A stretch of 64,000 bases of DNA from an uncultured bacterium (lineage in GTDB: Bacteria; Patescibacteriota; Patescibacteriia; SG8-24; DYFX01): assembly GCA_937900255.1 (NCBI GenBank), contig CALCDZ010000001.1, forward strand, positions 57,988 through 121,987, written 5' to 3'. Positions within the stretch are counted from its first letter, which is position 1; each line of letters starts with the position of its first letter. This document shows positions 8,368-43,219 of the stretch, piece after piece. The notes under the pieces are model-generated. The model was not told where the DNA came from. It searched no databases and was given only the letters and a program-made list of their open reading frames with translations. The translations under genes were made by a program, and so were the position numbers.

Positions 8368-8404
8368 TCGGGTCCGTCCCATCCGTGACGGTCTTGCGCG
8401 CGAG

Positions 8405-8415
8405 TGTGCTATACT
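8405..8415 (+). promoter_or_regulatory. extended -10 (TGTGCTATACT) upstream of pilM
   Basis: TGn plus TATACT, 26 nt upstream of the pilM ATG. The same TATACT hexamer recurs before rnhA (323-328), the third pilin (16116-16121) and pgi (57362-57367). Confidence 0.4.
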
Positions 8416-8440
8416 CTTTGGGAATCCACATACGGAGGCT

Positions 8441-9499: not shown

Positions 9500-9500
9500 T

Positions 9501-10418: not shown

Positions 10419-10428
10419 TGACTCTCCC

Positions 10429-11001: not shown

Positions 11002-11261
11002 CTATGCGGAAATTCACCAAGAGCCAAAAGCAGATGATGGTCCTCGCCGCGCTCCTCGTCGCGATCGTGGTCGTCTTGGCGATCTTCGTCTTCAAACCGA
11101 CGGTCGCGGTCCGCTCTCCGTACGTGCCGAAGGTCGTCGATACCCGCATCCCGGATGATCTCCTGCGGCAGCCCGAATACCGGAAGCTCAATCTGCCGGT
11201 CGAGCTTCCGTTGGTGCCGGGGCGCACGGGCAGGAGCAATCCTTTCGAACCGTACCGTTAA
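10998..11261 (+). CDS. small membrane protein, possibly PilP-like (R-N-P-F motif near C-terminus)
   Basis: 87 aa with an N-terminal TM helix and a C-terminal GRSNPFEPYR. ATGA overlap with pilO. The PilP assignment is tentative. Confidence 0.45.
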   Translation: MTMRKFTKSQKQMMVLAALLVAIVVVLAIFVFKPTVAVRSPYVPKVVDTRIPDDLLRQPEYRKLNLPVELPLVPGRTGRSNPFEPYR

Positions 11262-11270
11262 GAATCCTCC

Positions 11271-13025: not shown

Positions 13026-13032
13026 AACCACT

Positions 13033-13422
13033 ATGGCCGACGATCGAAAAAACGTGAAGATCCTGCTGGTGGAAGATGACGCGTTCCTGGCGGGAGTCTA
13101 CGCGACCAAGTTCGAACTCGAGGGTTTTTCCGTCCTCCTGGCTTCGGATGGCGAGCAGGGGCTGAAGATGGCCGAGAAGCACGTGCCGGACCTCGTCCTG
13201 CTGGATATCCTCATGCCGAAGATGGACGGATTCGAGATGCTGCATCGCATCAAGCTCGACCCTAAGCTTGAGCATATTCCCGTCGTGATGCTGACCAATC
13301 TCGGGCAGAAGGAGGATGTCGAGCGTTGCCTGAAGGACGGCGCGGCCGACTACCTCATCAAGGCCCATTTCGTGCCGGGCGAAGCGGTCAAGAAGGTCAA
13401 GCGGATATTGAATCTGAAGTGA
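13033..13422 (+). CDS. single-domain response regulator (CheY/PilH-like receiver)
   Basis: KILLVEDD...LLDILMPKMDGFE...DYLIKA receiver motifs. Embedded between pilB and pilC. Confidence 0.8.
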   Translation: MADDRKNVKILLVEDDAFLAGVYATKFELEGFSVLLASDGEQGLKMAEKHVPDLVLLDILMPKMDGFEMLHRIKLDPKLEHIPVVMLTNLGQKEDVERCLKDGAADYLIKAHFVPGEAVKKVKRILNLK

Positions 13423-13425
13423 CGC

Positions 13426-14634
13426 ATGCCGATTTTCAGTTATAAGGTCAAGGACGCGCGCGGCGCCCAGCTCGATGGGGCGGTCGAAGCGGTCGACGAG
13501 ACCCAGGCATCGGAAGTCCTGCGCGAGCGCGGGTATCAGGTCATCTCCGTCATCGCGCGCGAGGAACCTTCGGTCGGCAACATGCGCTTCACGTTCCTTC
13601 AGCGCGTGACGCCCAAGGACGTCGTCGTCTTTTCGCGCCAGCTTTCGGTCATGGTCGGCGCCTCCGTCGCCATCGTCCGCGCGCTTCGCACGAGCGCGCG
13701 GCAGACGAGCAACTCCAAGCTTCGGGCCATTGTGCTGGACATCGCCAACGAAGTCGAAGGGGGCGTGCGCCTGTCGGAGGCGTTCAACAAGCACCCGCGC
13801 GTCTTCGGCAGCTTTTACGTCAACATGATCCGCTCCGGCGAGACGACCGGCAAGCTGGATGATGTCCTCCTGTACCTTGCCGAGCAGCAGGAAAAGGATT
13901 ACGACCTGCGGCAGCGGGTGCGCGGCGCGATGACGTACCCTATCTTCGTCCTCGCGATGCTTTTCGCGGTCGGCACGGTCATGATGATCTTCGTCGTCCC
14001 GAAACTGACCGCCGTGCTGTCCGAGTCCGGCGTCGGACTGCCGGTCTCCACGCGCATCCTGATCGCCGTGAGCGATGTCTTCGTCAACTTCTGGTACCTG
14101 ATCGTGGGCGGCGTCCTCGGCGCCGTCCTCGGCGTGCGCGCGGCGTATCGCACGCCGGTCGGACGGCGCATTTTCGACGGTTTCGTCCTGCGCCTGCCGG
14201 TGTTCGGCTCCCTGCTGCGCCGGATCTACATGACCCGCATCACGCATAGCCTTTCGACCTTGATCGAAGGCGGCGTCGATATGGTCACGAGCCTGAAGAT
14301 CGTCTCCGGCATCGTCGGCAACGAGGTCTATCGCGAGACGCTCGTGAGGACGGTGCAGGAAGTCGCGGCCGGGAACTCCATGACGACCGTCTGGAAAGGC
14401 AACAAGGCGATCCCGGACATGGTCACCCAGATGGTGGCGGTCGGGGAGGAGAGCGGAAAGCTGCAGCAGGTCCTCGAGCGGCTGACGGATTTTTATACCC
14501 GCGAAGTCAACGCTTCCGTCGCGAACCTCTCGACCGCCATCGAGCCGATCATCATGGTCGTCATGGGCGTCGCCGTCGGGGGCCTGGTCTCGGCCATCAT
14601 CTTGCCGATGTACACGTTAGCCCAACAGATGTGA
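13426..14634 (+). CDS. pilC: type IV pilus inner-membrane platform protein PilC (GspF family)
   Basis: 402 aa with two T2SSF-like repeats and three TM segments. Confidence 0.9.
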   Translation: MPIFSYKVKDARGAQLDGAVEAVDETQASEVLRERGYQVISVIAREEPSVGNMRFTFLQRVTPKDVVVFSRQLSVMVGASVAIVRALRTSARQTSNSKLRAIVLDIANEVEGGVRLSEAFNKHPRVFGSFYVNMIRSGETTGKLDDVLLYLAEQQEKDYDLRQRVRGAMTYPIFVLAMLFAVGTVMMIFVVPKLTAVLSESGVGLPVSTRILIAVSDVFVNFWYLIVGGVLGAVLGVRAAYRTPVGRRIFDGFVLRLPVFGSLLRRIYMTRITHSLSTLIEGGVDMVTSLKIVSGIVGNEVYRETLVRTVQEVAAGNSMTTVWKGNKAIPDMVTQMVAVGEESGKLQQVLERLTDFYTREVNASVANLSTAIEPIIMVVMGVAVGGLVSAIILPMYTLAQQM

Positions 14635-16135: not shown

Positions 16136-16681
16136 ATGAGCCTTGTCCCGCTTATGCCTTATCACGAAAAAACCGAAGCTTTCACCCTCATCGAGCTCTT
16201 GGTCGTCATCGCCATCATCGGCCTGCTCGCGACCGTGACGGCCGTCTCCGTCAATGCGGCGCGCGCCAAGTCACGTGATTCCAAACGCGTGTCCGACATG
16301 AAGCAGATACAGAAGGCGTTGGAGCTCTCCTATGAGCCAGGCTCCGGCTATCCGGTCGTAAGCGCTCCGGTCACGATCGGGACGCCGTCGACCGACGTGC
16401 TTTGCGCCAAGGGGGCGAGCACGGGATTCGTCGCCGATACGACGGCCGCCAACTGCGACGCCGGAAAGGTCTTCATGGGACTGGTCCCTGGCAACGCCGT
16501 TCCGGGCGGAACGGCCTATACCTACAGGAGCACCGATGCCAACGGCGCCGCCTGCACGACGGCTCCCTGCAACGGCTATTGTCTGCAGGCCAACCTGGAA
16601 ACGGGCTTGCCTCAAGGCGGACTGGCGGCCGGCGGGATCATCGGCAACCAGACCGCCCTCAAGAACGGCACATGCCCATGA
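16136..16681 (+). CDS. type IV pilin (third, divergent paralog)
   Basis: ...KTEAFTLIELLVVIAIIGLLATV. An alternative start is at 16154. Preceded by the terminator hairpin and TATACT at 16116-16121. Confidence 0.75.
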   Translation: MSLVPLMPYHEKTEAFTLIELLVVIAIIGLLATVTAVSVNAARAKSRDSKRVSDMKQIQKALELSYEPGSGYPVVSAPVTIGTPSTDVLCAKGASTGFVADTTAANCDAGKVFMGLVPGNAVPGGTAYTYRSTDANGAACTTAPCNGYCLQANLETGLPQGGLAAGGIIGNQTALKNGTCP

Positions 16682-19230: not shown

Positions 19231-22160
<2,930 letters not shown>

Positions 22161-30094: not shown

Positions 30095-31348
30095 ATGGCG
30101 AAAGCATCACCGAAAAAGAAGACGTCCAAAAAACCCGTCGTCAAGAAAAAGGCCCCCGTGGCCAAGAAAAAGCCCGCTCCGAAGGAAAAAGCTCCCAAGA
30201 AAGGTCCGGAACCGAAGACGAAGCGCTTGAAAGTCGAACCGCCGGCCATCGAGGCCGTCGACAACCTCTTCAAGAAAGGGTTGGCGCGCGGGTTCGTCAC
30301 CGAGATGGAAATCCTGTCGGTCTTCAACGAGGTGGAGGAATACCTGCCCGTCTATGACGAGTTCCTGAACCGCCTCGACAAAGGCGGCATCCAGATCATC
30401 GAGATGAAGGAAGGCCTGCTCGGGAAGAGCTCCGAGCGCGAAGGCGCCATGGCGATGATCCGCGTCGTCAACAAGGAGAAGGATCTCAAGAGGGACGCCA
30501 AGAAGTCGCCGCTCGACATGGAGATCTCGACCGACTCCATCCAGATGTACCTGCGCGAGATCGGCAAGATCCCGCTCCTCACCGGCGCCGAGGAAGTCGA
30601 GCTCGCCAAGCGCAAGGAGCGCAACGACCGCGAGGCCGAACGCCGCCTGATCGAAGCCAACCTGCGCCTGGTCGTCTCGATCGCCAAGAAGTTCGTGGGC
30701 AAGTCGCTTTCGCTGCTCGACCTGATCCAGGAAGGCAACATCGGCCTCTTCCGCGCGGTCAAGAAGTTCGAATACCGCAAGGGCTACAAGTTCTCGACCT
30801 ACGCCACCTGGTGGATCCGCCAGGCCATCACGCGCGCCTTGGCCGACCAGTCGCGCACCATCCGCATCCCGGTGCACATGGTCGAGACCATCAACCGCTT
30901 CCAGCAGATCGAGCGCCAGCTCATCCAGGACCTCGGCCGCGAGCCGCTGCCGGAAGAGATCGCCGCCGAGATGGGCGAGTCGGTCGAGAAGGTCCGCCAC
31001 ATCATCCAGATCTCGCAGGACACGGTCTCGCTCGAAGCCTCCGTCGGTGAAGACGACGAGGACTCCACGCTCGAGGACTTCATCGAGGACGTGAAGAACG
31101 TCTCTCCCGACCGCGCCGCCGCGCTGCAGCTGCTGCGCGATTACGTCGGAGAGATCACCAAGGACCTCTCGCCCCGCGAGCAGAAGATCCTGGAGATGCG
31201 CTTCGGCCTGACCGACGGCGTCGCCCATACGCTGGAAGAGGTCGGCAAGGAGTTCGACGTCACCCGCGAACGCATCCGCCAGATCGAAGCCAAGGCATTG
31301 GAAAAGATCCAGGCGCACTCGGGCATCGCCCGCCTGCGCGACTATTAG
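30095..31348 (+). CDS. rpoD: RNA polymerase sigma-70 factor RpoD
   Basis: Lys-rich N-terminus. Regions 2-4 ([24 protein letters not shown], and the region 4 HTH). Conserved dnaG-rpoD order. Confidence 0.9.
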
Positions 31349-31357
31349 AACGGATAC

Positions 31358-31396
31358 GGAAAAGGCCCCGGCGGAAGCCGAGGCCTTTTTCTTTCG
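31358..31396. terminator. bidirectional terminator between convergent rpoD and the surface-protein gene
   Basis: GC-rich hairpin AAAGGCCCCGGCGGAAGCCGAGGCCTTT flanked by an A-run on one side and TTTTTCTTTC on the other. Confidence 0.55.
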
Positions 31397-31400
31397 CCGT

Positions 31401-33173
31401 TCAATCCTGATAGCCGGCGGGGCGTTCGCCGTCCTGGAGCGGCGAGCCGATCCGATAATCGGCGAAGAGGCTGACGTCGACGTCACGTACGCGCGTGTTC
31501 CAGGCGGTGCCGTAGAGCGCCTTGGCTTGCGCTTCGGTCTGGACCCAGCGGAGCAGGCCATCGGGCTCGACCGCGTAGGTCTTCGGATCGCTCTGGATCT
31601 TGATCAGGTAGGCGCCTTCGCGCAACCGGACGTTGCCACCGATCACGAGGCCGCTCAGCTGGTCGGCGGGCACGGTGACGACCTTGGAGAAGTCCTGCCC
31701 GAACCAGGACCGATAGCTGGTCTCGTTCGGGAAGACGTAGCGTTTCCCGTTCTTGTACCAGTAGACGGCTGGGGAGGCAGAGGCCTTGATGAGGTCTCCG
31801 TCCTTCAAAGGAAGGAAACCGACGCCCTGCGGCGCCGAAGCCTGGGCGGTGATAGGAGCCGACTCGATTGAGAGGGCATCCTTGACTCCGTCGGAAACGG
31901 CGAAGCGGCAGGTGACGGGAGTCGCGGTCAGGCCTTCTGCCAGCGTCGCCAGGCGCGCCGGTCGGTCGCCGACCACCGTGACGGTGGAGGGCCTGCCTCC
32001 GCAAGAGGCGGTGACGGAGGTCGGCGCCCGGTCGAGTTCAACGGAAACCTGCGCGGCGGAGTCCGTGAGGCGGGCGACGTCGGGTCCAGAGACGACCCTC
32101 GGGGCCGCGGTAGCCGGCGTCGAGATCATCACCGGGCTGACGACCGAAACGTTCATCACTGCGCCGGCGGCGTTCAGCGCTTCGGCCTTGAGCGTGAGCG
32201 CGCCGTTCACGGCGGGCGGATACCAGACGTAGGCGCCGTCGGTCACCGGCCGTTCGACGATGGGGCGATAGCTGCCGCTGCCGTCCGTCGAGTAACTGAG
32301 CCGTACCTTCACGACGCCCGCTTCGTTGGCGTACCAAGCCAGCGGGCTCGGCGCCCCGGCTTGGAAGGACGGAAGGCCATGGGGCGACGTCAAGGCGAAG
32401 ACGGTATCCTTGGAAGGCGTGGGGTCGTTCGAAGTGCCGGTCCGGAAACTGAAAGGATTCGGATAGCTGCCGAGCGCGACGGAGTTCCCGGCCGCGTCCT
32501 TCGCGTCGATCCCGAAAGTTTCGGCCGCTCCGCGCGCGTACGGCGCATGCGAGATCGTCAGTACGTTTCCGGAGAAGGCGTAGCCCCACCCATCAGGATT
32601 CTTTTCGGAGAAGGGGACGACGCTGCCTGACAAGACCGGCTCGCTGAAGGTGAGGACGAGGTCAGCGTCACGCGAAGCGTCGATCGTCCCGGCGGCTGGG
32701 TTGGAGGAAAGCAGCACCGGCGGAGCCTGGTCGATTTCCGTGTCGGAAGCGCCGGTGTCTCCGATGGCGATCGCCGAAAGTTCGGTCGTGCCGTCGCTCA
32801 CGCCCGCGTTCGCGCCCTGTGGCGCATAGGTGACTTCAAAACCCTGGGCAGAAGTCGTGACCGGCAAGCGCGCGTCGGACTCATCCAACGCGATTTCCAG
32901 CGACGCCGGGTCGCCCGAAACGGCCACGAAGGCGGAGCGGACGGCCAACGCCTGCCCTTGATAGCTCACGCCGATCCCTTTCGTGCCGCGAACGCGCCAA
33001 TCCGTCTTAGCGGGGTTGGCGAAGGCGATGACGGCATGGTCGATCCGTCCGTCGTGATTGAGGTCCCGGAGGGCGATGGACGTGACGTTCCCCGCCGCCG
33101 GGGCGGCAAGGGCCGGCAGGGCGGTCACCGCAAGCAAGGCGGCGAAAGAGCCCAAAAGAAGTTTGTTGCGCAT
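31401..33173 (-). CDS. secreted surface protein with Ig-like regions and a C-terminal ~100-aa domain shared with two other proteins in the window
   Basis: Start at MRNKLLLGSFAALLAVTALPALAA (signal peptide); the ORF-track start at 33329 is an extension. The C-terminus (AVYWYKNGKRYVFPNETSYRSWF...KIQSDPKTYAV...LRWV) matches domains in 54059-56668 and 49982-51391. Confidence 0.65.
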   Translation of the reverse strand: MRNKLLLGSFAALLAVTALPALAAPAAGNVTSIALRDLNHDGRIDHAVIAFANPAKTDWRVRGTKGIGVSYQGQALAVRSAFVAVSGDPASLEIALDESDARLPVTTSAQGFEVTYAPQGANAGVSDGTTELSAIAIGDTGASDTEIDQAPPVLLSSNPAAGTIDASRDADLVLTFSEPVLSGSVVPFSEKNPDGWGYAFSGNVLTISHAPYARGAAETFGIDAKDAAGNSVALGSYPNPFSFRTGTSNDPTPSKDTVFALTSPHGLPSFQAGAPSPLAWYANEAGVVKVRLSYSTDGSGSYRPIVERPVTDGAYVWYPPAVNGALTLKAEALNAAGAVMNVSVVSPVMISTPATAAPRVVSGPDVARLTDSAAQVSVELDRAPTSVTASCGGRPSTVTVVGDRPARLATLAEGLTATPVTCRFAVSDGVKDALSIESAPITAQASAPQGVGFLPLKDGDLIKASASPAVYWYKNGKRYVFPNETSYRSWFGQDFSKVVTVPADQLSGLVIGGNVRLREGAYLIKIQSDPKTYAVEPDGLLRWVQTEAQAKALYGTAWNTRVRDVDVSLFADYRIGSPLQDGERPAGYQD

Positions 33174-33262
33174 ATGCCCATATCTTAGCAGTTTTTCCGA
33201 GACATGGCACATCCACGTTTGAAACGCTGTCCCGACCTTTAAATATGAGGTGCACAGGGGCC

Positions 33263-33291
33263 TTGATGCGCTCGGGCCCCTCGTGTATAGT
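33263..33291 (+). promoter_or_regulatory. sigma-70-like promoter for tRNA-Asn (TTGATG-N17-TATAGT)
   Basis: TTGATG at 33263-33268, a 17-nt spacer, TATAGT at 33286-33291, about 38 nt upstream of the tRNA 5' end. Confidence 0.5.
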
Positions 33292-33329
33292 GTGCCTGGT
33301 ACCGACCGCCCATCCGGGGCGTGAGCCAT

Positions 33330-33404
33330 TCCGAGGTAGCTCAGCGGTAGAGCAGTGGACTGTTAATCCATTGGTCCTGGGTTCGAATCCCAGCCTCGGA
33401 GCCA
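33330..33404 (+). tRNA. tRNA-Asn (anticodon GTT), CCA encoded
   Basis: TCCGAGGTAGCTCAGCGGTAGAGCAGTGGACTGTTAATCCATTGGTCCTGGGTTCGAATCCCAGCCTCGGAGCCA. Acceptor TCCGAGG/CCTCGGA, anticodon loop CTGTTAA, T-loop TTCGAAT. Confidence 0.85.
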
Positions 33405-33441
33405 TGAGCAGGCGTGTGGGGCGACCCACGTGCTTGGTCAA
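33394..33441 (+). repeat. 48-bp direct repeat copy 1 (tRNA-Asn 3' end plus 37 nt downstream)
   Basis: cctcggagccatgagcaggcgtgtggggcgacccacgtgcttggtcaa. Copy 2 at 35157-35204 is identical except for one mismatch. Confidence 0.75.
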
Positions 33442-33443
33442 AA

Positions 33444-33478
33444 GCCAGCCAAAAAATTGGCTGGCTTTTGTGTTTTTT
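33444..33478 (+). terminator. rho-independent terminator after tRNA-Asn
   Basis: GCCAGCCAA-aaaa-TTGGCTGGC hairpin followed by TTTTGTGTTTTTT. Confidence 0.6.
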
Positions 33479-33708
33479 AGGTCGTTCGGATTAGCGACCT
33501 GAACCAGTGTGATTTCGCATTGGAAACGCACCCACGTGGGAATCAAGAACTTTAACCTTATTTCCTGGTTCGAATCCCACGTGTTTTCACGCGCCGTCAC
33601 TGCATGACCTCGGGCGCATTGGTTGACCCAATGCATCAGAAAAGCTACTCTTAAAGGAGGATTTCCAACGTAATTCGATATAGCACCTATTTTGCAAATG
33701 ATAATGTT

Positions 33709-34305
33709 ATGAAGCGAGCATATATTTTGCTGCTTGTCGTTACGTATAGCCTTGGACTGATCGGGGTGACATCCTGGTTTTGGTTGCGGCAAAATCGGAA
33801 TAATCAAACCGGATCTTCCTGCTTCGACTCCGCGATTTTTTGCAGGCCCGCGGAATACATGGCGGAGGACGGCATCGTTTATGCTCATCTGCGTCGGGGC
33901 GAAGAGGAGGCAATGATTGAACGTATCCGCGAGTATTACACTGCAGACTATCGCAAGACGCTACCTAAGAAGTTCGAAGCGGAATTGACCTCTGCCGATA
34001 CTCCTCAGGAAAAGCAAAAGTACGCAGACGCCCTTGCGTCCCTGAAAAAGTGGATTGACGTGGATACGTCCTTTAGCGCGCCTCGTACTTATAAGGACTT
34101 GGACGGCGTCGTGGCTGTGGTCACGGGCGCCTCGGCATTCGTACCGGGCGTAGGATACGTTGAGTCGAGAGCTAACGTTTTTTTCTTCCGCCGCGATGAT
34201 ACGTCGTACCGGCTCGCGGCTGTCACGCCCGTCGGGGAAGATGCAAGGACGTATGAATCGGCGCCGGTCGACATGTTCAAGAGGGGTGTGGGGGCTATAG
34301 AATAG
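33709..34305 (+). CDS. hypothetical membrane-anchored protein (island cargo)
   Basis: 198 aa with an N-terminal TM helix. It sits in an AT-richer segment and is convergent with the CHAP-like gene. Confidence 0.5.
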   Translation: MKRAYILLLVVTYSLGLIGVTSWFWLRQNRNNQTGSSCFDSAIFCRPAEYMAEDGIVYAHLRRGEEEAMIERIREYYTADYRKTLPKKFEAELTSADTPQEKQKYADALASLKKWIDVDTSFSAPRTYKDLDGVVAVVTGASAFVPGVGYVESRANVFFFRRDDTSYRLAAVTPVGEDARTYESAPVDMFKRGVGAIE

Positions 34306-34360
34306 CTTACCGAACAAAAAAGAGGCATTCTGACAGTGGATGCCTCTGATGATCTCGATC

Positions 34361-35041
34361 CTAGTACGTGTACGTGGCCTTGAGCCTGAATCCCTGGAAG
34401 ATGACGTTGGGGAAATAGTTCTGCCGTACCTGCCTGAGTGACATGTCGCCACAACGATTCGTCGTGTGCGCGGCGAGCCAGACGTCGTCCCCGTTTTGTC
34501 CCGTCACGAAGTAGGCGTGATCCCAGCTGCCGTCTCCGGTCCAGTCCGCTAGGATCACATCCCCGGCATAGAAGCGCGGAATGGTCGAGAGGCTCTGTGG
34601 AATGGACACGGCGCCATATGTCCTTCCGGAGTTAAGCATGAAGGTGCGGAACTCGCTGACACCGGCCCAGGAGTTGCTTCGGTTGTGATCACCGGCGCTG
34701 AGGTAGTACCAGGCATCGCTACACCACCAACACGTTCCGCCGACCGGCTGCCAACCGCCGAATGCGAGTGCTTGAGACACGAAGTTGGTGCAGTCGCTTG
34801 AGTATGCCTCGTAAGCCTTGTTGTACCCAGTGGTGAGTGACGTGTTGGTTATTCCGCAGTAGTGCAGCGCGTACGTGACTGCGGAACTCGCGGAATAGGT
34901 GCCGGTCGTGACCGACTGCACCACGGACCCCGTGTCGCTGCCGTCGCTGTCTCCGGACGTCGAGGCGTCCATGTCGGCAACGCACGACATCGATACCGAT
35001 CCAATGAGCGCGAAGACCAAAAGAGCTGTTCCTAGTCGCAT
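34361..35041 (-). CDS. secreted CHAP/NlpC-P60-like cysteine amidase (putative peptidoglycan hydrolase)
   Basis: Signal peptide MRLGTALLVFALIGSVSMSC. Cys motif SDCTNFVSQALAFGGW and downstream His GSWDHAYFV give the papain-fold Cys/His arrangement. RBS GGAAGAGGA before ATG 35041; an alternative start is at 35059. Confidence 0.55.
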   Translation of the reverse strand: MRLGTALLVFALIGSVSMSCVADMDASTSGDSDGSDTGSVVQSVTTGTYSASSAVTYALHYCGITNTSLTTGYNKAYEAYSSDCTNFVSQALAFGGWQPVGGTCWWCSDAWYYLSAGDHNRSNSWAGVSEFRTFMLNSGRTYGAVSIPQSLSTIPRFYAGDVILADWTGDGSWDHAYFVTGQNGDDVWLAAHTTNRCGDMSLRQVRQNYFPNVIFQGFRLKATYTY

Positions 35042-35156
35042 CTGTCCTCTTCCTTTCATGCAATGCCATCGACACTATGTCGATGCGGGAGGAGACTAGC
35101 ACGCGGTTGGCGTTGGCGTCAACCGTGCCTAGGGACTCCAGTGGGAATCGCTACCT

Positions 35157-35204
35157 GGGAGCCATGAGCAGGCGTGTGGGGCGACCCACGTGCTTGGTCA
35201 ATAG
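35157..35204 (+). repeat. 48-bp direct repeat copy 2 (att-like duplicate of the tRNA-Asn 3' end)
   Basis: cctgggagccatgagcaggcgtgtggggcgacccacgtgcttggtcaa, preceded by a degenerate T-arm-like gggaatcgctacc. Confidence 0.75.
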
Positions 35205-35250
35205 ATCATCAAATCATTGGTGGGCTGTTGACTGATAGCAACACGAGTCT

Positions 35251-35847
35251 ATGTGGTTCCACAAGGAGGAAAACCAAATAGATAAAATGTCAAAAGTTTT
35301 TATTGACGAATTTCCTTCTTGGGCGATTAAGCACTCGGCCAAATTGATTTCGGAACTTAAGGAATCACGAAACGAGTATGAGAAGAGTTGGGCCAATCTT
35401 CTCAAGGAACAAAATGCACTTGGAGATACTCTAATTGATTATTTTACGGCCGCGCACGCCATCTACATCAATTCACTGCCTGATGCTTATATTCAATTAT
35501 TGGGAGGTGGCAAAAAAATTGCATCAGCGCTCTCCCTGTGGCCAAGTCGATCCCAAAACTTTTTCCTAATAGCATCGAAGTTCCATCAAAAAGTTTCGTC
35601 TGATGTAGGTCGCGGCGGCAAGAGTTCACTGGTTGAATCATTTGAAAAAGTGTTTTCAAGCGGTGGAAATCTTGAACCCTTGGCTGTGCACATCAGCACT
35701 GCAATTGCGCATTCAATTTCCCAAGAAATGGGCGTGGACACAGATGACCCATTTTCAGCTGCAGGCCTATACTCAACTCTTTTTCGATTATCGCAGGAGC
35801 AACTGGAGTGGGTTTCCAGCCACATTATCAAGCGGGATGCCCGTTGA
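35251..35847 (+). CDS. hypothetical all-alpha protein, low-GC orphan gene
   Basis: 198 aa with markedly AT-rich coding sequence. Lies between the tRNA-end repeat (35157-35204) and the R-M flanking repeat (35935). No family recognised. Confidence 0.5.
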   Translation: MWFHKEENQIDKMSKVFIDEFPSWAIKHSAKLISELKESRNEYEKSWANLLKEQNALGDTLIDYFTAAHAIYINSLPDAYIQLLGGGKKIASALSLWPSRSQNFFLIASKFHQKVSSDVGRGGKSSLVESFEKVFSSGGNLEPLAVHISTAIAHSISQEMGVDTDDPFSAAGLYSTLFRLSQEQLEWVSSHIIKRDAR

Positions 35848-35934
35848 GACCCAAGTACGGCAGTGGCCCACAAATTGACCCCTTCAAAAGCCCTAAGGTG
35901 CCCACAGGAATTGGGCACCAGACCCACCAGCGGA

Positions 35935-36040
35935 GCCAGCAAGACCCATCACGCAAGTGGCGGGTCTTTGCTTTCCGTAAGTCGATTTCCCTTTGGGGGT
36001 GTCGTCTGCTAAAATTGGTCAACATCAGCCAAGGCCGCCT
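35935..36040 (+). repeat. ~105-bp imperfect direct repeat, copy A (immediately upstream of hsdM)
   Basis: gccagcaagacccatcacgcaagtggcgggtctttgctttccgtaagtcgatttccctttgggggtgtcgtctgctaaaattggtcaacatcagccaagg... is about 90% identical to copy B. Confidence 0.75.
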
Positions 36041-36070
36041 CTTTTTTGCTGAAATCAGCGACATACCGCT

Positions 36071-37522
36071 ATGTTCGAGCAAGCCTTCAAGAACATCGAC
36101 GACATCCTCCGCACGGATTCCGGTTCGGCTACGGAGCTGGACTACGTGGAGCAGACTTCCTGGATCATTTTCCTGAAGTACCTGCATGACCTGGAGCTCG
36201 AGAACGCGAAGAAGGCGGAGCTCTCCGGCAAGAAGCACGAGCATACCTTTGAACCGAAGTTCCGCTGGGATACCTGGGCCTGCCCACGGACACCCGACGG
36301 CAAGATCGACCACCATAAAGCGCTCGACGGTAAGGACCTCAAGGAGTTCGTCGACGAAAAGCTTTTCCCGTACCTCAAGAAGTTCAAGAGCGCAGATCCG
36401 GACACCGTCGAATACAAAGTCGGTGAGATCTTCAGCGAACTCAAGAATAAAATCACGAGCGGCTACAAGCTCCGCGAGATTTTGAACATCGTCTGCGATT
36501 TGCACTTCCAGCGTAGCGAGGAGAAGCATGAGCTCTCGCATCTGTACGAGGCCCGAATCGCCAAGATGGGCAACGCGGGACGGAACGGCGGCGAGTACTA
36601 CACGCCTCGCCCCCTCATCCGCACCATCGTGCAAGTGGTCAGGCCTGAAATCGGCGACAAGATCTACGACGGCGCCTGCGGCTCAGCCGGCTTCCTGGTC
36701 GAGGCCTTCAAGTACCTGACGGAAAACAGCGCCAAGCTCTCCACGGCCGAAATGCGCACGCTCCAGACCAAGACCTTCTACGGCAAGGAGATCAAGTCCT
36801 TGGCCTACATCATCGGCGTGATGAACATGATCCTGCACGGGGTCGAGGCGCCGCACATCCGGCACATGGACACGCTGTCCCAGAACGTCAACGACATCCA
36901 GGAGAAGGACCGCTTCGAGGTCATCCTGGCCAACCCGCCGTTCGGCGCCGGTATCGGCAAGGAAGTCCAGCAGAACTTCCCGATCAAGACCGGCGAGACG
37001 GCCTACCTGTTCCTCCAGCACTTCATCAAGAGCCTCAAGGCCGGCGGCCGGGCGGGCATCGTCATCAAGAACACCTTCCTTTCCAACACCGATGACGCCT
37101 CCGTGCGCCTGCGCAGGCACTTGCTTGAGAGCTGCAATCTCCACACCGTGCTGGACTTGCCGGGCGGCGTCTTTTCAGGCGCTGGGGTGAAAACTGTGGT
37201 GCTGTTCTTCGAGAAAGGCGCGCCCACCAAGAAGGTCTGGTACTACCAGCTCAAGCTCGACCGCAATCTCGGCAAGACCAACCCGATCAACGAGAAGGAT
37301 CTGGCGGACTTCGTGAAGCTCCAGAAGACCAAGGCCGATTCCTCCAACGCCTGGTCGGTCAAGGTTTCGGATCTCGATCAGGAAACGCTTGATTTGTCGG
37401 TGAAGAACCCTAAGGGCACCGAGACTGTCGCGCACCGCAGCCCCAAGGACATTCTCAAGGAGATGGTGAAATTGGATGCAGAGAGCGCGAAAGCGTTGGC
37501 TGGTATCAAGGGGTTGCTATGA
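36071..37522 (+). CDS. hsdM: type I restriction-modification system methyltransferase subunit
   Basis: MFEQAFKNIDDILRTDSG... N-terminus. N6-adenine MTase motif NPPFG. AdoMet motif DGACGSAGFL. Confidence 0.9.
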   Translation: MFEQAFKNIDDILRTDSGSATELDYVEQTSWIIFLKYLHDLELENAKKAELSGKKHEHTFEPKFRWDTWACPRTPDGKIDHHKALDGKDLKEFVDEKLFPYLKKFKSADPDTVEYKVGEIFSELKNKITSGYKLREILNIVCDLHFQRSEEKHELSHLYEARIAKMGNAGRNGGEYYTPRPLIRTIVQVVRPEIGDKIYDGACGSAGFLVEAFKYLTENSAKLSTAEMRTLQTKTFYGKEIKSLAYIIGVMNMILHGVEAPHIRHMDTLSQNVNDIQEKDRFEVILANPPFGAGIGKEVQQNFPIKTGETAYLFLQHFIKSLKAGGRAGIVIKNTFLSNTDDASVRLRRHLLESCNLHTVLDLPGGVFSGAGVKTVVLFFEKGAPTKKVWYYQLKLDRNLGKTNPINEKDLADFVKLQKTKADSSNAWSVKVSDLDQETLDLSVKNPKGTETVAHRSPKDILKEMVKLDAESAKALAGIKGLL

Positions 37523-38679
37523 GTGGTGAGTGGCCCACGAGAAAATTGGGCGCTGTTTTGCAGATAATCAATGGTTACGCGTTTGATTCCAAACATTTTG
37601 ATGCCACAAATGGAATGCCGCTGATTAGGATCCGTGATTTAAAATCTGGTACTCACACGGAAACGCGATTTGCAGGGGCATACGACAAAAAATATATAGT
37701 TAAAGCAGGAGATTTGCTCATTGGAATGGATGGTGAGTTTGGTTGCTACGAATGGGGTGGTGAACCCGGCTTATTAAATCAGCGAGTATGCAAGTTACAG
37801 TCGTTTGCAACATCGCTAGCGCCGCGCTTCTTATTTTACGGAGTTAACAGTTACCTTAAGGACATTGAGAATGAGACTGGATATACCACAGTAAAGCACC
37901 TGTCTTCAAAACAAATCCTCGACATCGAATTTCCAATTCCGCCGCTACCGGAGCAACGGCGGCTCATTAAGTTACTCGACCAAGCTTTTTTGGATATCGC
38001 CATCGCCAAGGCGAATGCCGAAAGGAACTTGCAAAATGCGCGCGATCTTTTTGAGAGCCGTCTCAATGAGATTTTTACCAAGCGGGGACTGGGGTGGGTG
38101 GAAAAACGGCTCGATCAGATTGGAACAACACAAACCGGTTCGACTCCGTCGACTTCCGATAAAGAAAACTACGGCAACTTCATTCCTTTTATAAAGCCGG
38201 CAGACTTTAATGAAGATGGCTCATTGAACTATGGCAATGCTGGTCTTACCGAAAAGGGATTATTGAAAGCGCGCAAAGTGCGAGCTGGATCAGTCCTAAT
38301 GGTGTGCATCGGTGCGACTATCGGGAAATGTGGTTATTGTGATCGTGATGTAACCACAAATCAGCAAGTTAACTCACTCACCCCATTCAAAGGTACTTTC
38401 TACAAGCTTGTTTATTATCAGATGCGTACCAGAGACTTTCAAAGACGCATGCTTTTGAGTTCTGCTCAGGCCACGTTGCCGATAATAAACAAGTCTAAGT
38501 GGGAGGCTTTAACAATTTTGCTGCCACAAAAGACGGGAGAACAATCACGTATCGTTATGGAGCTGGCCGGCTTGGACAAAGAAGCAGCCCGCCTCAAGTC
38601 CACCTATCAGAAAAAGCTCCACGCATTGGAAGCGCTAAAGAAATCCTTGCTCAACAAGGCTTTTCGTGGTGAGCTGTAG
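37519..38679 (+). CDS. hsdS: type I restriction-modification system specificity subunit
   Basis: 386 aa with two target-recognition-domain halves separated by conserved helical repeats. ATGA overlap with hsdM. AT-rich relative to hsdM and hsdR. Confidence 0.85.
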   Translation: MSGEWPTRKLGAVLQIINGYAFDSKHFDATNGMPLIRIRDLKSGTHTETRFAGAYDKKYIVKAGDLLIGMDGEFGCYEWGGEPGLLNQRVCKLQSFATSLAPRFLFYGVNSYLKDIENETGYTTVKHLSSKQILDIEFPIPPLPEQRRLIKLLDQAFLDIAIAKANAERNLQNARDLFESRLNEIFTKRGLGWVEKRLDQIGTTQTGSTPSTSDKENYGNFIPFIKPADFNEDGSLNYGNAGLTEKGLLKARKVRAGSVLMVCIGATIGKCGYCDRDVTTNQQVNSLTPFKGTFYKLVYYQMRTRDFQRRMLLSSAQATLPIINKSKWEALTILLPQKTGEQSRIVMELAGLDKEAARLKSTYQKKLHALEALKKSLLNKAFRGEL

Positions 38680-38685
38680 GCGCAT

Positions 38686-40989
38686 ATGAACGAAGCCGAA
38701 ACGCGCGCGGAATACGTCGACCCCAAGCTTAAGGCGAGCGGGTGGGGCGAAATCGAAGGATCGAAGGTCCTGCGCGAGTTTCGGATCACCGAGGGCAAGA
38801 TCCAGACGGGCGGCACGCGCGGGAAGCCGGAGATCGCCGATTATGTGCTGGTCTACAAGAACCGCAAGCTCGCCGTCGTCGAAGCTAAACCGGAAGGGAT
38901 GGAGGCGACGGAGGGCGCAGTCCAGGCCAAGGCCTATGCGGCGAAGCTCGGTTTGGAATACACCTACGCCACCAATGGTCGGGACATCTACGAGGTGTCG
39001 ATGAAGACCGGGCACGAAGGTGCCGTGGGCAGCTTCCCGACGCCTGACGAACTCTGGGCCCGCACCTTCGCCGAGCAGAACGCCTGGCGCGAGAAGTTCG
39101 CCGCCGTCCCGACGGAGGGCGAAAAGGGCCGCCGGTATTATCAGGAGCTGGCCATTGACAACGCGCTCGAGGCCGTGGCCGAGGGCAAGAAGCGGATCCT
39201 GGTGACCATGGCCACCGGTACCGGCAAGACGGCCGTGGCGGCGCAGTTCTCCTGGAAGCTGTTCCAGTCGCGTTGGAACCTCCGGGGCGACGGCGCGCGC
39301 CGGCCGAGGATCCTGTTCCTGGCCGACCGCAACATCCTCGCGGACCAGGCCTTCACGAACGACTTCGCGATCTTCGAGCGCGACGCCCGGGTGCGCATCA
39401 ACCCGCTCGACATCCGCAAGAAGGGCGGCGTGCCGACCGGCGGCAGCGTCTTCTTCACCATCTTCCAGACGTTCATGAGCGGGCCGGGCGATACGCCGTA
39501 CTTCGGCGAGTACCCGCCGGATTTCTTCGACCTCGTCATCATCGACGAGTGCCATCGCGGCGGCGCCAACGACGAGGGCAACTGGCGCGGCATCTTGGAA
39601 TACTTCGCCCCGGCCGTGCAGCTCGGTCTGACGGCGACGCCGAAGCGCAAGGACAACGTGGATACTTATAGATATTTCGGCGAGCCGGTCTACACGTATT
39701 CCCTCAAACAAGGCATCAATGACGGCTTCCTGACGCCGTTCAAGGTCAAGCGCATTCAGACGACGCTGGACGAGTACGTCTACACCTCGGACGACCAGGT
39801 CATCGAGGGCGAAGTCGAGGAGGGCAAGATCTACGAGGAAGTTGACTTCAACAGGATCATCTTCATCAAGGAACGCGAAGCCAAGCGCGTGCGCATCGTG
39901 CTGGACGAGATCGACCAGGACGAGAAGACGATCGTCTTCTGCGCGACCCAGGACCACGCCTTGGCCGTCCGCGACCTGATCAACCAATACAAGGACAGCC
40001 GAGACCCGAATTACTGCGTCCGCGTGACCGCCAACGACGGCGCGCGCGGCGAGCAGTTCCTGCGGGAGTTCCAGGACAACGAGAAGACCATCCCGACCGT
40101 CCTGACCACTTCGCAGAAGCTCTCGACGGGCGTGGACGCCCGCAACGTCCGCAACATCGTGCTGATGCGGCCGGTCAACTCCATGATCGAGTTCAAGCAG
40201 ATCATCGGGCGCGGCACGCGGCTTTTCGACGGCAAGGAGTATTTCACCATCTACGACTTCGTCGACGCCTATCACCACTTTTCGGACCCGGAGTGGGACG
40301 GCGAACCGATCGAGGAAACGGAAGAGAAACCCCGCCACTCCAAGGAGTCCCAAGGAGATCCCAAGAAACCGCGCCAGGTGTCCGAACAGCCGGAAGACCA
40401 GCCGGCGAAAAAGCTTCGGATCAAGTTGCGTGACGGCAAGGAACGCGAGATCCAGCACATGATCTCGACCTCGTTCTGGAGCGCCGACGGCAAACCGCTT
40501 TCGATCCAGGAGTTCATGGACAACCTGTTCGGGGCGATGCCTGAGTTCTTCAGAGACGAGGAGGAGCTCCGCAAGATCTGGTCCGACCCGCGCACGCGCC
40601 AGGCCTTCCTCGATAAGATCGCAGAACTCGGCTACGGCAAGGATGCGCTGGAGACGCTCCAGAAGATGATCGACGCTGAGGACAGTGACCTGTTCGACGT
40701 GCTTTCGTATGTCTCGTTCCTGACGCCGCCGATCACGCGCGAGGAGCGCGTCAGCCACGCGAAGGATCGCATCTACCAAGGCCTCGGCGAACTCCAGCAG
40801 GATTTCCTCGGGTTCGTCCTCGGGAAGTACGAGGAGAGCGGGGTCGACGAGCTCGGCGAGCACCAACTGCCGATCCTGCTGAACCTGAAATACCAGGCCA
40901 TCGCTGACGCCGAGCAGGCGCTCGGGAATGTCGGCACAATCCGCACGCTCTTCCTGGATCTGCAGAGGAAGCTGTATGCTAAGATGTGA
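38686..40989 (+). CDS. hsdR: type I restriction enzyme R subunit (shorter than usual at 767 aa)
   Basis: N-terminal MNEAETRAEYVDPKLKASGW, helicase motifs ATGTGKT and DECHRG, then a C-terminal helical region. Confidence 0.85.
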   Translation: MNEAETRAEYVDPKLKASGWGEIEGSKVLREFRITEGKIQTGGTRGKPEIADYVLVYKNRKLAVVEAKPEGMEATEGAVQAKAYAAKLGLEYTYATNGRDIYEVSMKTGHEGAVGSFPTPDELWARTFAEQNAWREKFAAVPTEGEKGRRYYQELAIDNALEAVAEGKKRILVTMATGTGKTAVAAQFSWKLFQSRWNLRGDGARRPRILFLADRNILADQAFTNDFAIFERDARVRINPLDIRKKGGVPTGGSVFFTIFQTFMSGPGDTPYFGEYPPDFFDLVIIDECHRGGANDEGNWRGILEYFAPAVQLGLTATPKRKDNVDTYRYFGEPVYTYSLKQGINDGFLTPFKVKRIQTTLDEYVYTSDDQVIEGEVEEGKIYEEVDFNRIIFIKEREAKRVRIVLDEIDQDEKTIVFCATQDHALAVRDLINQYKDSRDPNYCVRVTANDGARGEQFLREFQDNEKTIPTVLTTSQKLSTGVDARNVRNIVLMRPVNSMIEFKQIIGRGTRLFDGKEYFTIYDFVDAYHHFSDPEWDGEPIEETEEKPRHSKESQGDPKKPRQVSEQPEDQPAKKLRIKLRDGKEREIQHMISTSFWSADGKPLSIQEFMDNLFGAMPEFFRDEEELRKIWSDPRTRQAFLDKIAELGYGKDALETLQKMIDAEDSDLFDVLSYVSFLTPPITREERVSHAKDRIYQGLGELQQDFLGFVLGKYEESGVDELGEHQLPILLNLKYQAIADAEQALGNVGTIRTLFLDLQRKLYAKM

Positions 40990-41120
40990 CGACGTGGGTA
41001 CGATCGTCGATTGCTGATTCGCCGGAATCAATAAACCGAATCCGCCCCTGTGAGGCGGGGGAGATGGACGTACTCGGCCTGTCTCCGTATCGAGGTTTCA
41101 ACGTCCTCCACGACGTGGAA

Positions 41121-41226
41121 GCCAGCAAGACACATCACGCAAGTGGTGTGTTTTGCTTTCCATAAGTCGATTTCCCTTTGGGGGTGTCGTCTGCTAAAAT
41201 TAGTCGACATCAGCCAAGACGCATTT
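41121..41226 (+). repeat. ~105-bp imperfect direct repeat, copy B (immediately downstream of hsdR)
   Basis: gccagcaagacacatcacgcaagtggtgtgttttgctttccataagtcgatttccctttgggggtgtcgtctgctaaaattagtcgacatcagccaagac... Confidence 0.75.
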
Positions 41227-41240
41227 TTTCCAAGTCCTAG

Positions 41241-41705
41241 GTGAAGGTTCATGGTCAACCTTATGAAACGGTGCCGTATATTCACATGACCAAAAGCCCC
41301 CTCAAAAATATACCTGCCGATTTTCGTAAAGCACTTGCGGCTGCGCCCAAAGCCAGGGAGCAATGGGAATCGTTGACGGCGATCGCGCGGAGGGATTTCA
41401 TCAGTTGGATCGCATCGGCCAAGCAAGAGAAGACGCATGCGCGTCGGATCGAGGTGGCGTGTTCGAAGCTTGCCGCCGGGCAGCGTCGTCCTTGCTGCTA
41501 CGCGGTCGTGCCGATGGATCTTTATAAGGCGCTTGCCACGGCGCCGAAGGCCAGGACGCAGTGGAGCGGCCTCACGCCGGATGAGCGCCGGGATCTTGTC
41601 GGTTGGATCGGGATATCCGGGAAACCGGGGGCGAGGGTGGGCCGAATCGCCGAAGCTTGCGCGATGCTCGCAGCCAGGAAAAGACGTTTTAAACCAGCGA
41701 AATAG
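41241..41705 (+). CDS. YdeI/OmpD-associated-family-like protein with an internal duplication
   Basis: Two ~55-aa repeats (ALAAAPKAREQWESLTAIARRDFISWIASAK / ALATAPKARTQWSGLTPDERRDLVGWIGISGK). GTG start at 41241; an alternative ATG is at 41286. Confidence 0.5.
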   Translation: MKVHGQPYETVPYIHMTKSPLKNIPADFRKALAAAPKAREQWESLTAIARRDFISWIASAKQEKTHARRIEVACSKLAAGQRRPCCYAVVPMDLYKALATAPKARTQWSGLTPDERRDLVGWIGISGKPGARVGRIAEACAMLAARKRRFKPAK

Positions 41706-41779
41706 CTTGCGAACGTTCCCGCCACACGGCATGGCACCGAACGTTTGATATTTCGGCCTCTTTCGGGCAAAATAGGGCC

Positions 41780-43219
41780 ATGTCGAACGGCGTGGCCAAG
41801 AACATCTTTCACCTGCTGACCTCCTCGGTCCTCCAAAAGGGCATCGCTTTCGTGTACTTCGCGCTCATCGCCCGTTGGGCCGGCGTCGCGCATACGGGGG
41901 CGTATTTCTTCGCCCTCTCCTGGACGTTGATGTTCACGACGATCACCGACATGGGCCTCACGCCCGTCCTGATCCGCGAATCGGCCAAAGACCACGCCAA
42001 TACCGAGAAGTTCCTGAACCAGACGCTTTCGCTCAAGCTTCCGCTCACGGCCGTGGCGGTACTCTCCGCCATCGTCGGCGCCTGGCTGTTCCATATCGAA
42101 CCGGTCACGCGTACGCTCGTCATGCTCTCCACCATCGTCATTTCGCTGGATGCCGTCTCCCTTACATTCTACGGCGTCCTGCGCGGGCACCATGTCCTGA
42201 AGCACGAAGGCCTCGGGCTGGTCATCGGCCAGTCCGTCACCATGCTCATCGGCCTCGCATCCTTGAAGCTCCACATGCCGCTCTGGGTGCTGGTCGTCGC
42301 GCTCATCGCCGGCAGTTCCTGGAACGCGCTGGCGTCCTGGTGGGTCGTGACCCGCAAGCTCCGTATCCGCGTCCGTCCGAGCTGGGACCGGAACTTCGCC
42401 CTGACGATCCTGCGTACCGCCTTCCCGTTCGCGCTCGCGGGCTTTTTCGTGAAGATCTACACCAGCGCCGACGCCGTGCTGCTCACGCACTTCCATGGAG
42501 AGGCGGCGGCCGGCCTTTACAGCGTCCCGTATAAGCTGACCTTCGCCTTCCAGTTCGTGCCAATGACGTTCACGGCGGCGTTCTACCCGGCCATGAGCCG
42601 CGCCTTCGCGACGGACAAGAAGGCGCTCGGCGATCTCCTGTACCAGGCGCTGCGGTCGCTGACGCTGATCGTCGCCCCGATCGTCTCCGGCATCGCCGCC
42701 CTGGCGCCGCAATTGGTGCAATCCGTTTTCGGCAAGGAGTACCTGCCGTCCGTCCTTGCGGTCGAGACGCTTATTTTCGTACTCGTCCCGATCTTCCTGG
42801 ATTTCCCGATCGGCTCGCTCCTGAACGCCTCCGACCGCCAGATGACGCAGACGAAACTGATGGCGGCTGCGACCGCCGTCTCGCTCGCGCTCAACCTCGC
42901 CCTCATCCGGGATTACGGCTTGGTCGGGGTCGTCGTCGCATCGATCGTCAGCCACATGGTCCTGATCGTCGGCGGCCTCATCGTCATCGGGAAGTTCCTG
43001 GAATGGCCGGCGGCCCGGTTCGCCGGGGCTGCCGTCCGCACGGGTCTGGCGGCCGGCGCGATGGCGCTCGTCGTGACGTTCACGAAGTCGCTCCTGCCTC
43101 TTCCGGCCGTGGTGTTCCTCGGTGCGCTCAGTTACCCGGCCGCTGCCTTCGCGTTCGGCGCGATCGGCGTGAAGGATCTCAAGATGCTGGCCGCGGGGGT
43201 GCTGAAGCCAAGCGCATGA
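41780..43219 (+). CDS. polysaccharide/oligosaccharide flippase (Wzx / MOP superfamily)
   Basis: 479 aa with about 12-14 TM helices. The N-terminus has the typical polysaccharide-biosynthesis-protein layout. Confidence 0.75.
   Translation: MSNGVAKNIFHLLTSSVLQKGIAFVYFALIARWAGVAHTGAYFFALSWTLMFTTITDMGLTPVLIRESAKDHANTEKFLNQTLSLKLPLTAVAVLSAIVGAWLFHIEPVTRTLVMLSTIVISLDAVSLTFYGVLRGHHVLKHEGLGLVIGQSVTMLIGLASLKLHMPLWVLVVALIAGSSWNALASWWVVTRKLRIRVRPSWDRNFALTILRTAFPFALAGFFVKIYTSADAVLLTHFHGEAAAGLYSVPYKLTFAFQFVPMTFTAAFYPAMSRAFATDKKALGDLLYQALRSLTLIVAPIVSGIAALAPQLVQSVFGKEYLPSVLAVETLIFVLVPIFLDFPIGSLLNASDRQMTQTKLMAAATAVSLALNLALIRDYGLVGVVVASIVSHMVLIVGGLIVIGKFLEWPAARFAGAAVRTGLAAGAMALVVTFTKSLLPLPAVVFLGALSYPAAAFAFGAIGVKDLKMLAAGVLKPSA

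Follow-up and report, generated by a model that had tools for sequence, protein, structure and literature searches.

A type I restriction-modification operon between direct repeats, in a probable stack of small insertions at a tRNA-Asn gene of an uncultured Patescibacteria-like bacterium

The hsdMSR operon and the repeats that bracket it

A complete type I restriction-modification (R-M) operon, hsdM-hsdS-hsdR, lies between two direct repeats of about 100 nt in a stretch of 64,000 nucleotides of contig CALCDZ010000001.1 from an uncultured bacterium, the whole of which is called here the window. The window contains 62% G+C, and its RpoD and HsdM proteins are closest to proteins of metagenome-assembled genomes (MAGs) of Patescibacteria (candidate phyla radiation, CPR). 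A previous reading of this DNA, made from its letters only and called below the sequence-only reading, had noticed that the repeats enclose exactly the three hsd genes, and this holds in alignment, in a comparison of the window with itself (blastn, E 1e-37 for the pair) and in Pfam and PADLOC scans. The elements of the operon and of its borders are the following, in positions of the window.

35934..36033, + strand: repeat copy A, with AGCCA, a hairpin at 35939-35971 (GCAA loop) and its T-rich tail, a second hairpin, and TGCTAAAAT at 36007-36015
36071..37522, + strand: hsdM, type I methyltransferase (Pfam N6_Mtase and HsdM_N; PADLOC MTase_I, E 7e-156)
37519..38679, + strand: hsdS, specificity subunit with two target-recognition domains (Pfam Methylase_S twice; PADLOC; composition)
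38686..40989, + strand: hsdR, restriction subunit with an EcoEI/EcoAI-like C-terminus (Pfam ResIII and EcoEI_R_C; PADLOC REase_I, E 9e-136)
41120..41218, + strand: repeat copy B, with a hairpin at 41125-41156 and TGCTAAAAT at 41192-41200
41286..41705, + strand: YdeI/OmdA-family gene (ydeI) with two OmdA repeats (Pfam OmdA, E 2e-33; alternative start GTG at 41241)

In the 5,086 bp between the copies (36034-41119) the three hsd genes are the only ones, all with uninterrupted frames and full-length Pfam and PADLOC matches. The ATG of hsdM is found 37 nt past the end of copy A, copy B begins 130 nt past the stop codon of hsdR, and the first gene after copy B is ydeI, which starts 22 nt (GTG 41241) or 67 nt (ATG 41286) beyond it. 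The two copies are identical in 93 of 100 alignment columns, with six substitutions, one indel and no more than 39 nt of unbroken identity, and their similarity stops abruptly at either end; the ends previously proposed, at 36040 and 41226, overshoot by about 7 nt, and the identity of about 90% given with them becomes 93%. A blastn search of the 64-kb window revealed no third copy. The differences are unevenly placed (5/46 in the left half, 2/54 in the right), a contrast too small to locate the point of a crossover between A and B. An independent assembly (ENA ERZ650241, NODE_788; locus L001 in what follows) has this layout too, without a single base of difference. A Logan contig starts at 41172, within copy B, at a place where a graph built with k=31, which is our assumption for k, would be expected to break at the 39-mer common to the two copies. 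The DNA of the window was found in these two sources, the ENA assembly and one Logan run, and in one NCBI contig of 143.6 kb, and nowhere else.

The operon itself has relatives, but its repeats do not follow them. The nearest other HsdM proteins are 75-77% identical and come mostly from Patescibacteria, and the DNA of hsdR is 78% identical to the EcoAI-family hsdR of a Methylomagnum plasmid; megablast of 33300-41300 gave no phage match, and the plasmid match covers the conserved hsdR core only. Eight loci of the HsdM family (L001 with L083, L085, L086, L089, L096, L097 and L098) were each compared with themselves: flanking direct repeats exist in one of the seven others, L098, with a sequence unrelated to that of the window. 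As six of these loci have none, we understand the repeats as belonging to the site rather than to the R-M family.

Several features of these R-M systems may be recorded for their own sake. The same HsdM family (75-77% identical) occurs at unrelated chromosomal sites in other Patescibacteria (L083-L091), after rpsI or beside cysS, with additional genes wedged among hsdM, hsdS and hsdR (KAP NTPase, DUF87, Fic, an HTH/SocA pair). At the L098 locus, on an IMG/VR contig, hsdM and hsdS of a related system are fused, hsdR is truncated, and a res/mod pair resembling type III is present as well; a 55-nt direct repeat (93%; 9870-9923 and 19814-19868) bounds the block, a 327-bp repeat (91%) is found ahead of both modules (9490-9802 and 14292-14613), and CRISPR-like arrays of 34-nt repeats adjoin the block. 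In the window, hsdS has a G+C content of about 45% (37400-38600 examined) against 55-68% for hsdM and hsdR, and with its neighbouring open reading frame (ORF) spans 40-47% in a genome of about 62%; this low value would fit an exchange of target-recognition domains.

A putative terminator and promoter in each repeat

Both copies open with AGCCA, and the context of this start, (G)GA(A)GCCA, corresponds to the final bases of tRNA-Asn. A main hairpin follows, with a stem of 14 bp (GCAAGACCCATCAC-GCAA-GTGGCGGGTCTTTGC in copy A, GCAAGACACATCAC-GCAA-GTGGTGTGTTTTGC in copy B) and a T-rich tail, then a smaller second hairpin, CGATTTCCC-TTT-GGGGGTGTCG, and then TGCTAAAAT, an extended -10 element present in both copies, with about 18 nt of the module beyond it. 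The plus-strand RNA of copy A folds at -45.4 kcal/mol (z -3.5) and that of copy B at -49.8 kcal/mol (z -6.4), and a scan flagged copy B as terminator-like. About five of the seven differences between A and B sit in the hairpin half, where pairing is retained (C-G to A-T, an A.C mismatch to A-T, G-C to G.T).

Such an anatomy suggests a terminator followed by a promoter: each module would terminate the transcript that comes from the left and then start the next one. It had been remarked previously that copy A occupies the place where the hsdM promoter would be sought and that copy B stands just ahead of ydeI, and the extended -10 element is indeed suitably placed in both cases, as judged from its sequence. 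If each module terminates and restarts transcription in this way, the R-M operon would form an insulated transcription unit and ydeI would retain a promoter of its own.

A tRNA-Asn gene and a probable stack of three units behind it

The first bases of the repeat lead to a tRNA-Asn gene located to the left of copy A, just downstream of dnaG-rpoD, where it is adjoined by rpoD and by the gene of a Big_5 protein. Between this tRNA gene and copy B the following features succeed one another.

33330..33404, + strand: tRNA-Asn (GTT), the anchor of the hotspot, ending in ...CCTCGGAGCCA (ARAGORN; Rfam, 74.9 bits)
33385..33470, + strand: D1 copy 1, the last 20 nt of tRNA-Asn and 66 nt of its flank, with a strong terminator hairpin at 33439-33470
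33709..35059, no single strand: cargo of islet 3, a 198-aa ORF to which no function is assigned (33709-34305, +) and an Amidase_6 gene (34361-35059, -) (Pfam, PHROGs)
35145..35230, + strand: D1 copy 2, in which a D1-type flank follows a decayed 3' end of tRNA-Asn (identity 18/27; its GGAGCCA terminates at 35164)
35251..35847, + strand: cargo of islet 2, a 198-aa ORF to which no function is assigned, 40-44% G+C (composition; Pfam, PHROGs and PADLOC scans)
35912..35938, + strand: decayed tRNA-Asn 3' end to the left of copy A, 19/27 identical, ending in GGAGCCA (anchored ungapped comparison and alignment)
41097..41124, + strand: tail arm of the hsd islet, TTTCAACGTCCTCCACGACGTGGAAGCCA, in common with the tail of a creatininase islet at locus L101

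A second pair of repeats, D1, thus precedes the pair A/B. It is 86 nt long and 83% identical, with an identical core of 44 nt (35158-35201 corresponding to 33398-33441); it starts within the end of tRNA-Asn and brackets 1.7 kb with an ORF and the Amidase_6 gene. After D1 copy 2 come, in this order, the low-GC ORF, the decayed tRNA end, copy A, hsdMSR, the tail arm, copy B and ydeI. The 198-aa ORFs of islets 3 and 2 have the same length and no homology to each other. The whole stack begins at the 3' end of a tRNA and is bounded by repeats of that end, as islands of the tRNA type are.

The junctions share more than their position. In a table anchored on them, GGAGCCA is found at the end of the tRNA, at 35158-35164 and at 35932-35938, and GAAGCCA at 41118-41124. 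The arm to the left of this core resembles the tRNA 3' end at 19 of 27 positions before copy A, at 18 of 27 in D1 copy 2 and at 11 of 27 before copy B. The arm that precedes the core at copy B for about 27 nt, TTTCAACGTCCTCCACGACGTGGAAGCCA, matches its counterpart at the L101 junction, TTCTCACGTCCTCCACGACGCGGAGCCA; its 14-mer CGTCCTCCACGACG occurs once in the window and, among 109 loci that were fetched, only in L001, which is the window's own DNA, and in L101 and L103, with GGA(A)GCCA following at once in every occurrence. No match to the junction pattern AGCCAGCAAGACNCATCACG was found in IMG/VR. An 18-mer of the tail arm is present in eight IMG/VR contigs, and these were set aside as chance matches, lying inside high-GC phage coding DNA with none followed by GCCA.

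Away from the stack, ARAGORN calls a tRNA-Val at 42628-42701, within a polysaccharide flippase gene, which is probably a false positive, as Rfam gives it no support.

The same site in related genomes

Relatives were found by a search with RpoD (90-96% identical) and their contigs fetched; all comparators are other species. At two of these loci, L104 and L108 (RpoD 94% and 93% identical to that of the window; tRNA-Asn 98.7% identical in L104), the tRNA-Asn is immediately followed by GCAAGACACATCACGAAAGTGGTGTGTTTTGC, which is the hairpin half of the repeat and is 95-98% identical to the first 41 nt of copy B (E 3e-11 to 3e-16). In L104 this sequence is single-copy and there are no direct repeats whatsoever, and no hsd gene was found in the relatives within 5-7 kb after tRNA-Asn. 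Since the hairpin half stands there once, directly after the tRNA and in the absence of hsd genes, we understand the repeat as the native 3' flank of tRNA-Asn, its first five bases being the end of the tRNA itself. It follows that the R-M cassette is one unit of a stack of three at this tRNA, and not the isolated duplication that the sequence-only reading had in mind.

In these other species (RpoD 93-94%) the left 41-45 nt are found once after tRNA-Asn; the right half is weak or absent and the genes downstream differ. The right, promoter half, identical at 52 of 54 positions between A and B, has a faint counterpart in L104 (TCCCTTTGG, a 9-mer, shuffle p 0.008) and none in L108.

The comparison also separates the two copies. 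Over the 38-nt hairpin, the only change of copy B relative to L104 and L108 is one loop base, and copy A departs from them at about five positions, in a compensatory manner; as A and B diverge so unequally from the native hairpin, they are likely to have had different histories rather than to descend from a recent duplication in place. The previous proposal, a native promoter region duplicated at insertion, stands in one part and is unsupported in the other: there is native-type sequence on both sides of the operon, and a recent copying in place is not what the hairpins indicate. The count favours copy A as a foreign version of the flank that would have arrived with hsdMSR, and copy B as the resident one; it involves few positions, and a crossover placed further to the right would swap the assignment. 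If A is foreign and B resident, the crossover would lie near the GGAGCCA core.

That the tRNA end is a place where genomes change is directly visible in two of the relatives. For 13.45 kb the L108 and L109 contigs have 99.65% identity, and from 3 nt beyond the end of tRNA-Asn onward they are unrelated; the 3' end of tRNA-Asn is thus a point of recombination at which near-identical strains differ. Both contigs end about 100 nt past the divergence, which suggests assembly breaks at a polymorphic site. The cargo next to tRNA-Asn differs among L101, L104 and the window, so the site is variably occupied: L104 has its single copy and then a RibD_C gene, and L101 has a creatininase gene inserted after tRNA-Asn, followed by a stretch (16521-16593) to which the flank in D1 copy 1 is 97% identical, in genomes whose coding DNA is 70-89% identical.

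Two simple accounts of the repeat may be weighed at this point. In the first, the repeat would belong to a dispersed intergenic family, REP- or MITE-like, with the R-M operon between two of its members by chance. The hairpins are of a kind present in many such families; yet there are just two copies in 64 kb, no Rfam match within the repeats, no match of a 23-mer taken from them in JGI metagenome contigs or IMG/VR, and in the relatives the sequence is single and restricted to the end of tRNA-Asn, so that this account is barely credible. The second is that of the sequence-only reading, in which the promoter and leader of ydeI would have been duplicated in place and frequent recombination between A and B would make the operon a switchable cassette. 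The direct orientation of the copies would permit a deletion leaving one functional module before ydeI. However, both assemblies show the filled form only, and the empty form that was predicted, one copy directly before ydeI, was not found in the relatives, where the L104 copy precedes RibD_C and the OmdA genes are 34-38% identical to ydeI and lie kilobases further on. Nor was a recombinase found, the copies differ by 7%, skewed toward A, and this account leaves out the stack at the tRNA hotspot. We consider a switch very improbable: with a repeat of 100 bp at 93% identity, perfect over 39 nt at most, and no recombinase, an exchange between A and B would seldom occur, deleting the operon and leaving one working module.

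The site displays further variation that may be noted in passing. The tRNA-Asn is uninterrupted in the window and in L104; in three other relatives an insert of about 535 bp (L108:14599-15132, L109:12869-13402, L101:15062-15600) interrupts its anticodon loop, and it is because of this insert that ARAGORN misses the gene there. The insert has a sub-threshold match to group I introns (Rfam RF00028, 29 bits, E 2e-5), and its ORF in L108 a weak HNH match. Between rpoD and tRNA-Asn, relatives have Rce1-like and adenosine-deaminase genes, both missing from the window, which has kept the Big_5 surface protein gene (31348-33330, compared with L101:11248-15024).

How the operon may have entered

Taken together, these observations make it probable that the repeats are copies of the tRNA flank which mark serial insertion at a tRNA-Asn hotspot. 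The region from 33.4 to 41.2 kb would comprise three small insertions, accumulated one after another behind the 3' end of tRNA-Asn: islet 3, the ORF and the amidase gene between the D1 repeats; islet 2, the low-GC ORF; and islet 1, hsdMSR between A and B. The operon would have entered by recombination at or beside the tRNA end, either bringing its own flank module, the divergent copy A, or duplicating the resident one, and the resident module, copy B, would have been displaced downstream, to the front of ydeI.

How this recombination was brought about is a separate matter, on which we can be tentative only. An enzyme encoded elsewhere may have carried out site-specific integration, and four features speak for it: the invariant 7-nt core, the tRNA-like left arms, the tail arm common to two genomes and the breakpoint seen between strains. 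We take this possibility seriously and would still not call it likely. As none of the islets encodes a recombinase, they resemble the cis-mobilizable elements (CIMEs) that result from tandem accretion.

A number of observations weigh against serial insertion at the tRNA, or against this way of achieving it. Recombinase domains are absent from all scanned ORFs, in the islets (33.4-41.7 kb) and in the rest of the 64-kb window. The common sequence reaches about 95 nt past the end of the tRNA, far beyond a usual att core, and the arm to the left of copy B matches the tRNA at just 11 of 27 positions. The promoter half of the repeat is weak in L104 and absent in L108, as seen above, and the single copy of L104 precedes a gene other than ydeI. 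The comparators are other species, not strains of the same species free of hsd, and the asymmetry between A and B is based on about five substitutions.

The lack of a recombinase is accommodated at once if the cell's own homologous recombination did the work. A circular or transforming DNA with hsdMSR and the tRNA-Asn flank of a related donor would then have recombined at the resident flank through RecA, in the manner described by Campbell, the origin of the repeats being the same as in serial insertion at the tRNA. The repeats would represent the homology in its entire length (100 nt for A/B, 86 nt for D1), the incoming head resembles the resident one in both pairs, and the flank modules are 97% identical between genomes otherwise at 70-89%. 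The window also contains, at 8.3-14.6 kb, a type IV pilus cluster (8321-14634: PilM, a PilB-type ATPase, a PilC-type platform protein), of a system involved in DNA uptake in other bacteria, which would be relevant if the islets enter by transformation. Yet 100 bp at 93% identity make a poor substrate for RecA, and the tail arm and the invariant GGAGCCA present at all junctions, including that of islet 2, which has no long duplication, are left unexplained. We hold this route to be unlikely.

A further possibility dispenses with both att sites and recombinase: a target of about 100 bp beside the tRNA end would have been copied to both sides of the insert, as has been described for R-M systems of Helicobacter, Haemophilus and others, and the copies, identical to begin with, would since have diverged by 7%. 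The operon has three of the features used by Furuta et al. to recognize such cases (both R and M genes in the insert; less than 20 kb and no mobility gene; a repeat longer than 30 bp), a relative has the left half as a single copy, and the missing recombinase is consistent with it. However, a tail arm of about 27 nt that recurs in another genome, at the end of an unrelated islet beside the same tRNA, is not to be expected of a random insert; the junction lies exactly at the tRNA end where near-identical strains diverge; all of the roughly five hairpin changes are on A, and compensatory, with B matching the outgroups; and the adjacent islet 2 was inserted with no duplication of the module. The repeat is moreover derived from a tRNA, and Furuta 2010 assigns tRNA-derived repeats to site-specific recombination. 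An insertion with long target duplication seems to us quite improbable. Both this and the RecA route fit the tail arm and the core less well than site-specific recombination does.

Similar arrangements in other organisms

Units of R-M genes are known at tRNA genes, and R-M systems of every type with long flanking direct repeats (PMC2853133), and the long duplications that have been published measure 46 to more than 400 bp at 87-100% identity, type I systems included (Nobusato et al., 2000; Furuta, Abe and Kobayashi, 2010, PMC2853133). The operon of the window resembles the latter: some 5 kb of DNA encode a complete R-M system and no transposase, and they are flanked, beside the 3' end of a tRNA, by direct repeats of about 100 bp (93%). 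Those published cases were defined by an empty site of the same species, whereas that of the window was compared with other species only. In contrast with the published tRNA-linked R-M cases, which bear an integrase, none is found here; and unlike in the R-M precedents the repeat is the downstream flank of the tRNA, not the tRNA itself, and the cassette is placed within a stack. Set against the integrase-mediated tRNA island, the locus has the site and the variable occupancy and lacks the integrase.

Stacks of integrase-less units are also documented. CIMEs without an integrase arise by tandem accretion (Pavlovic 2004; Bellanger 2011, as reviewed in PMC5704250), and in Dehalococcoides tandem islands follow ssrA; 15 of these islands lack integration modules, and a conserved motif precedes each repeat (PMC3146451). 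As in these stacks, islands are piled after one small-RNA gene, each bounded by the repeat of its 3' end, many units are devoid of integration genes, and the short motif upstream of the repeats is comparable to the 27-nt arm of the window, where, as is characteristic of CIMEs, attL/attR-like repeats are retained and genes for integration and transfer are absent. Unlike in those stacks, the units are very small (0.8-5.2 kb), the repeats reach about 66-95 nt into the flank, neither the window nor the relatives revealed a partner element with an integrase, and the host is Patescibacteria-like.

The likeness with integron arrays is one of layout only, small promoter-proximal units being arranged serially at one fixed site and bounded by structured sequence that looks like a recombination site; unlike integrons, the locus has no IntI beside the site and no attC-type sites, and each unit has its own promoter. 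We know of no description of arrays of this kind in Patescibacteria-like hosts, and a literature search for them found none. The stack thus belongs to a known arrangement, that of R-M systems at tRNA genes or between long repeats and of integrase-less island stacks; what is particular to it is the absence of an integrase from three units, their tiny size, repeats that are mostly a terminator-promoter module, and a Patescibacteria-like host.

The gene downstream of the stack

For ydeI itself, the best homologues of the protein are at most 70% identical, so the search with YdeI yielded no orthologous empty site. A scan of genome contigs with RpoD gave, among the matches listed, relatives of at most 70% identity and no useful synteny. 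Look-ups of the exact proteins, YdeI with both starts and RpoD with a TTG start, found nothing. In L001, the sole assembly whose gene calls were inspected, an antisense ORF of 234 aa (41028-41732, -) is called in place of ydeI (41286-41705, +), which accounts for the empty result with YdeI. Ahead of the gene, a 12-codon ORF, MVNLMKRCRIFT (41251-41289), is preceded by a Shine-Dalgarno-like AGGTGA and its stop codon overlaps the ATG of ydeI (ATGA); it may be a coupled leader peptide.

What the stack means for its host

Neither a new kind of mobile element nor a phase switch is established by this analysis. What the locus displays is how the small genome of an uncultured, Patescibacteria-like bacterium took up a defence system and left the neighbouring genes undisturbed: with a terminator-promoter module that arrives in the insert or is formed anew, transcription signals would be retained both by the R-M operon and by the gene downstream. 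The tRNA-Asn downstream of dnaG-rpoD is a hotspot that is polymorphic at strain level, and this makes it useful when metagenomes are searched for further defence and accessory genes. The conserved tail arm offers a sequence handle toward the recombinase or the donor element. One may go further, in a speculation that we think unlikely to hold in full, and see tRNA-Asn as the fixed docking site of a family of very small integrase-less cassettes in this Patescibacteria-like lineage, each with its own terminator-promoter head and a tail arm of about 27 nt ending in GGAGCCA, inserted serially, either through RecA once DNA has been taken up or through a recombinase whose gene lies elsewhere. If so, the docking site would be an integron-like collection of defence and accessory genes at a tRNA, and the R-M operon one cassette in it.

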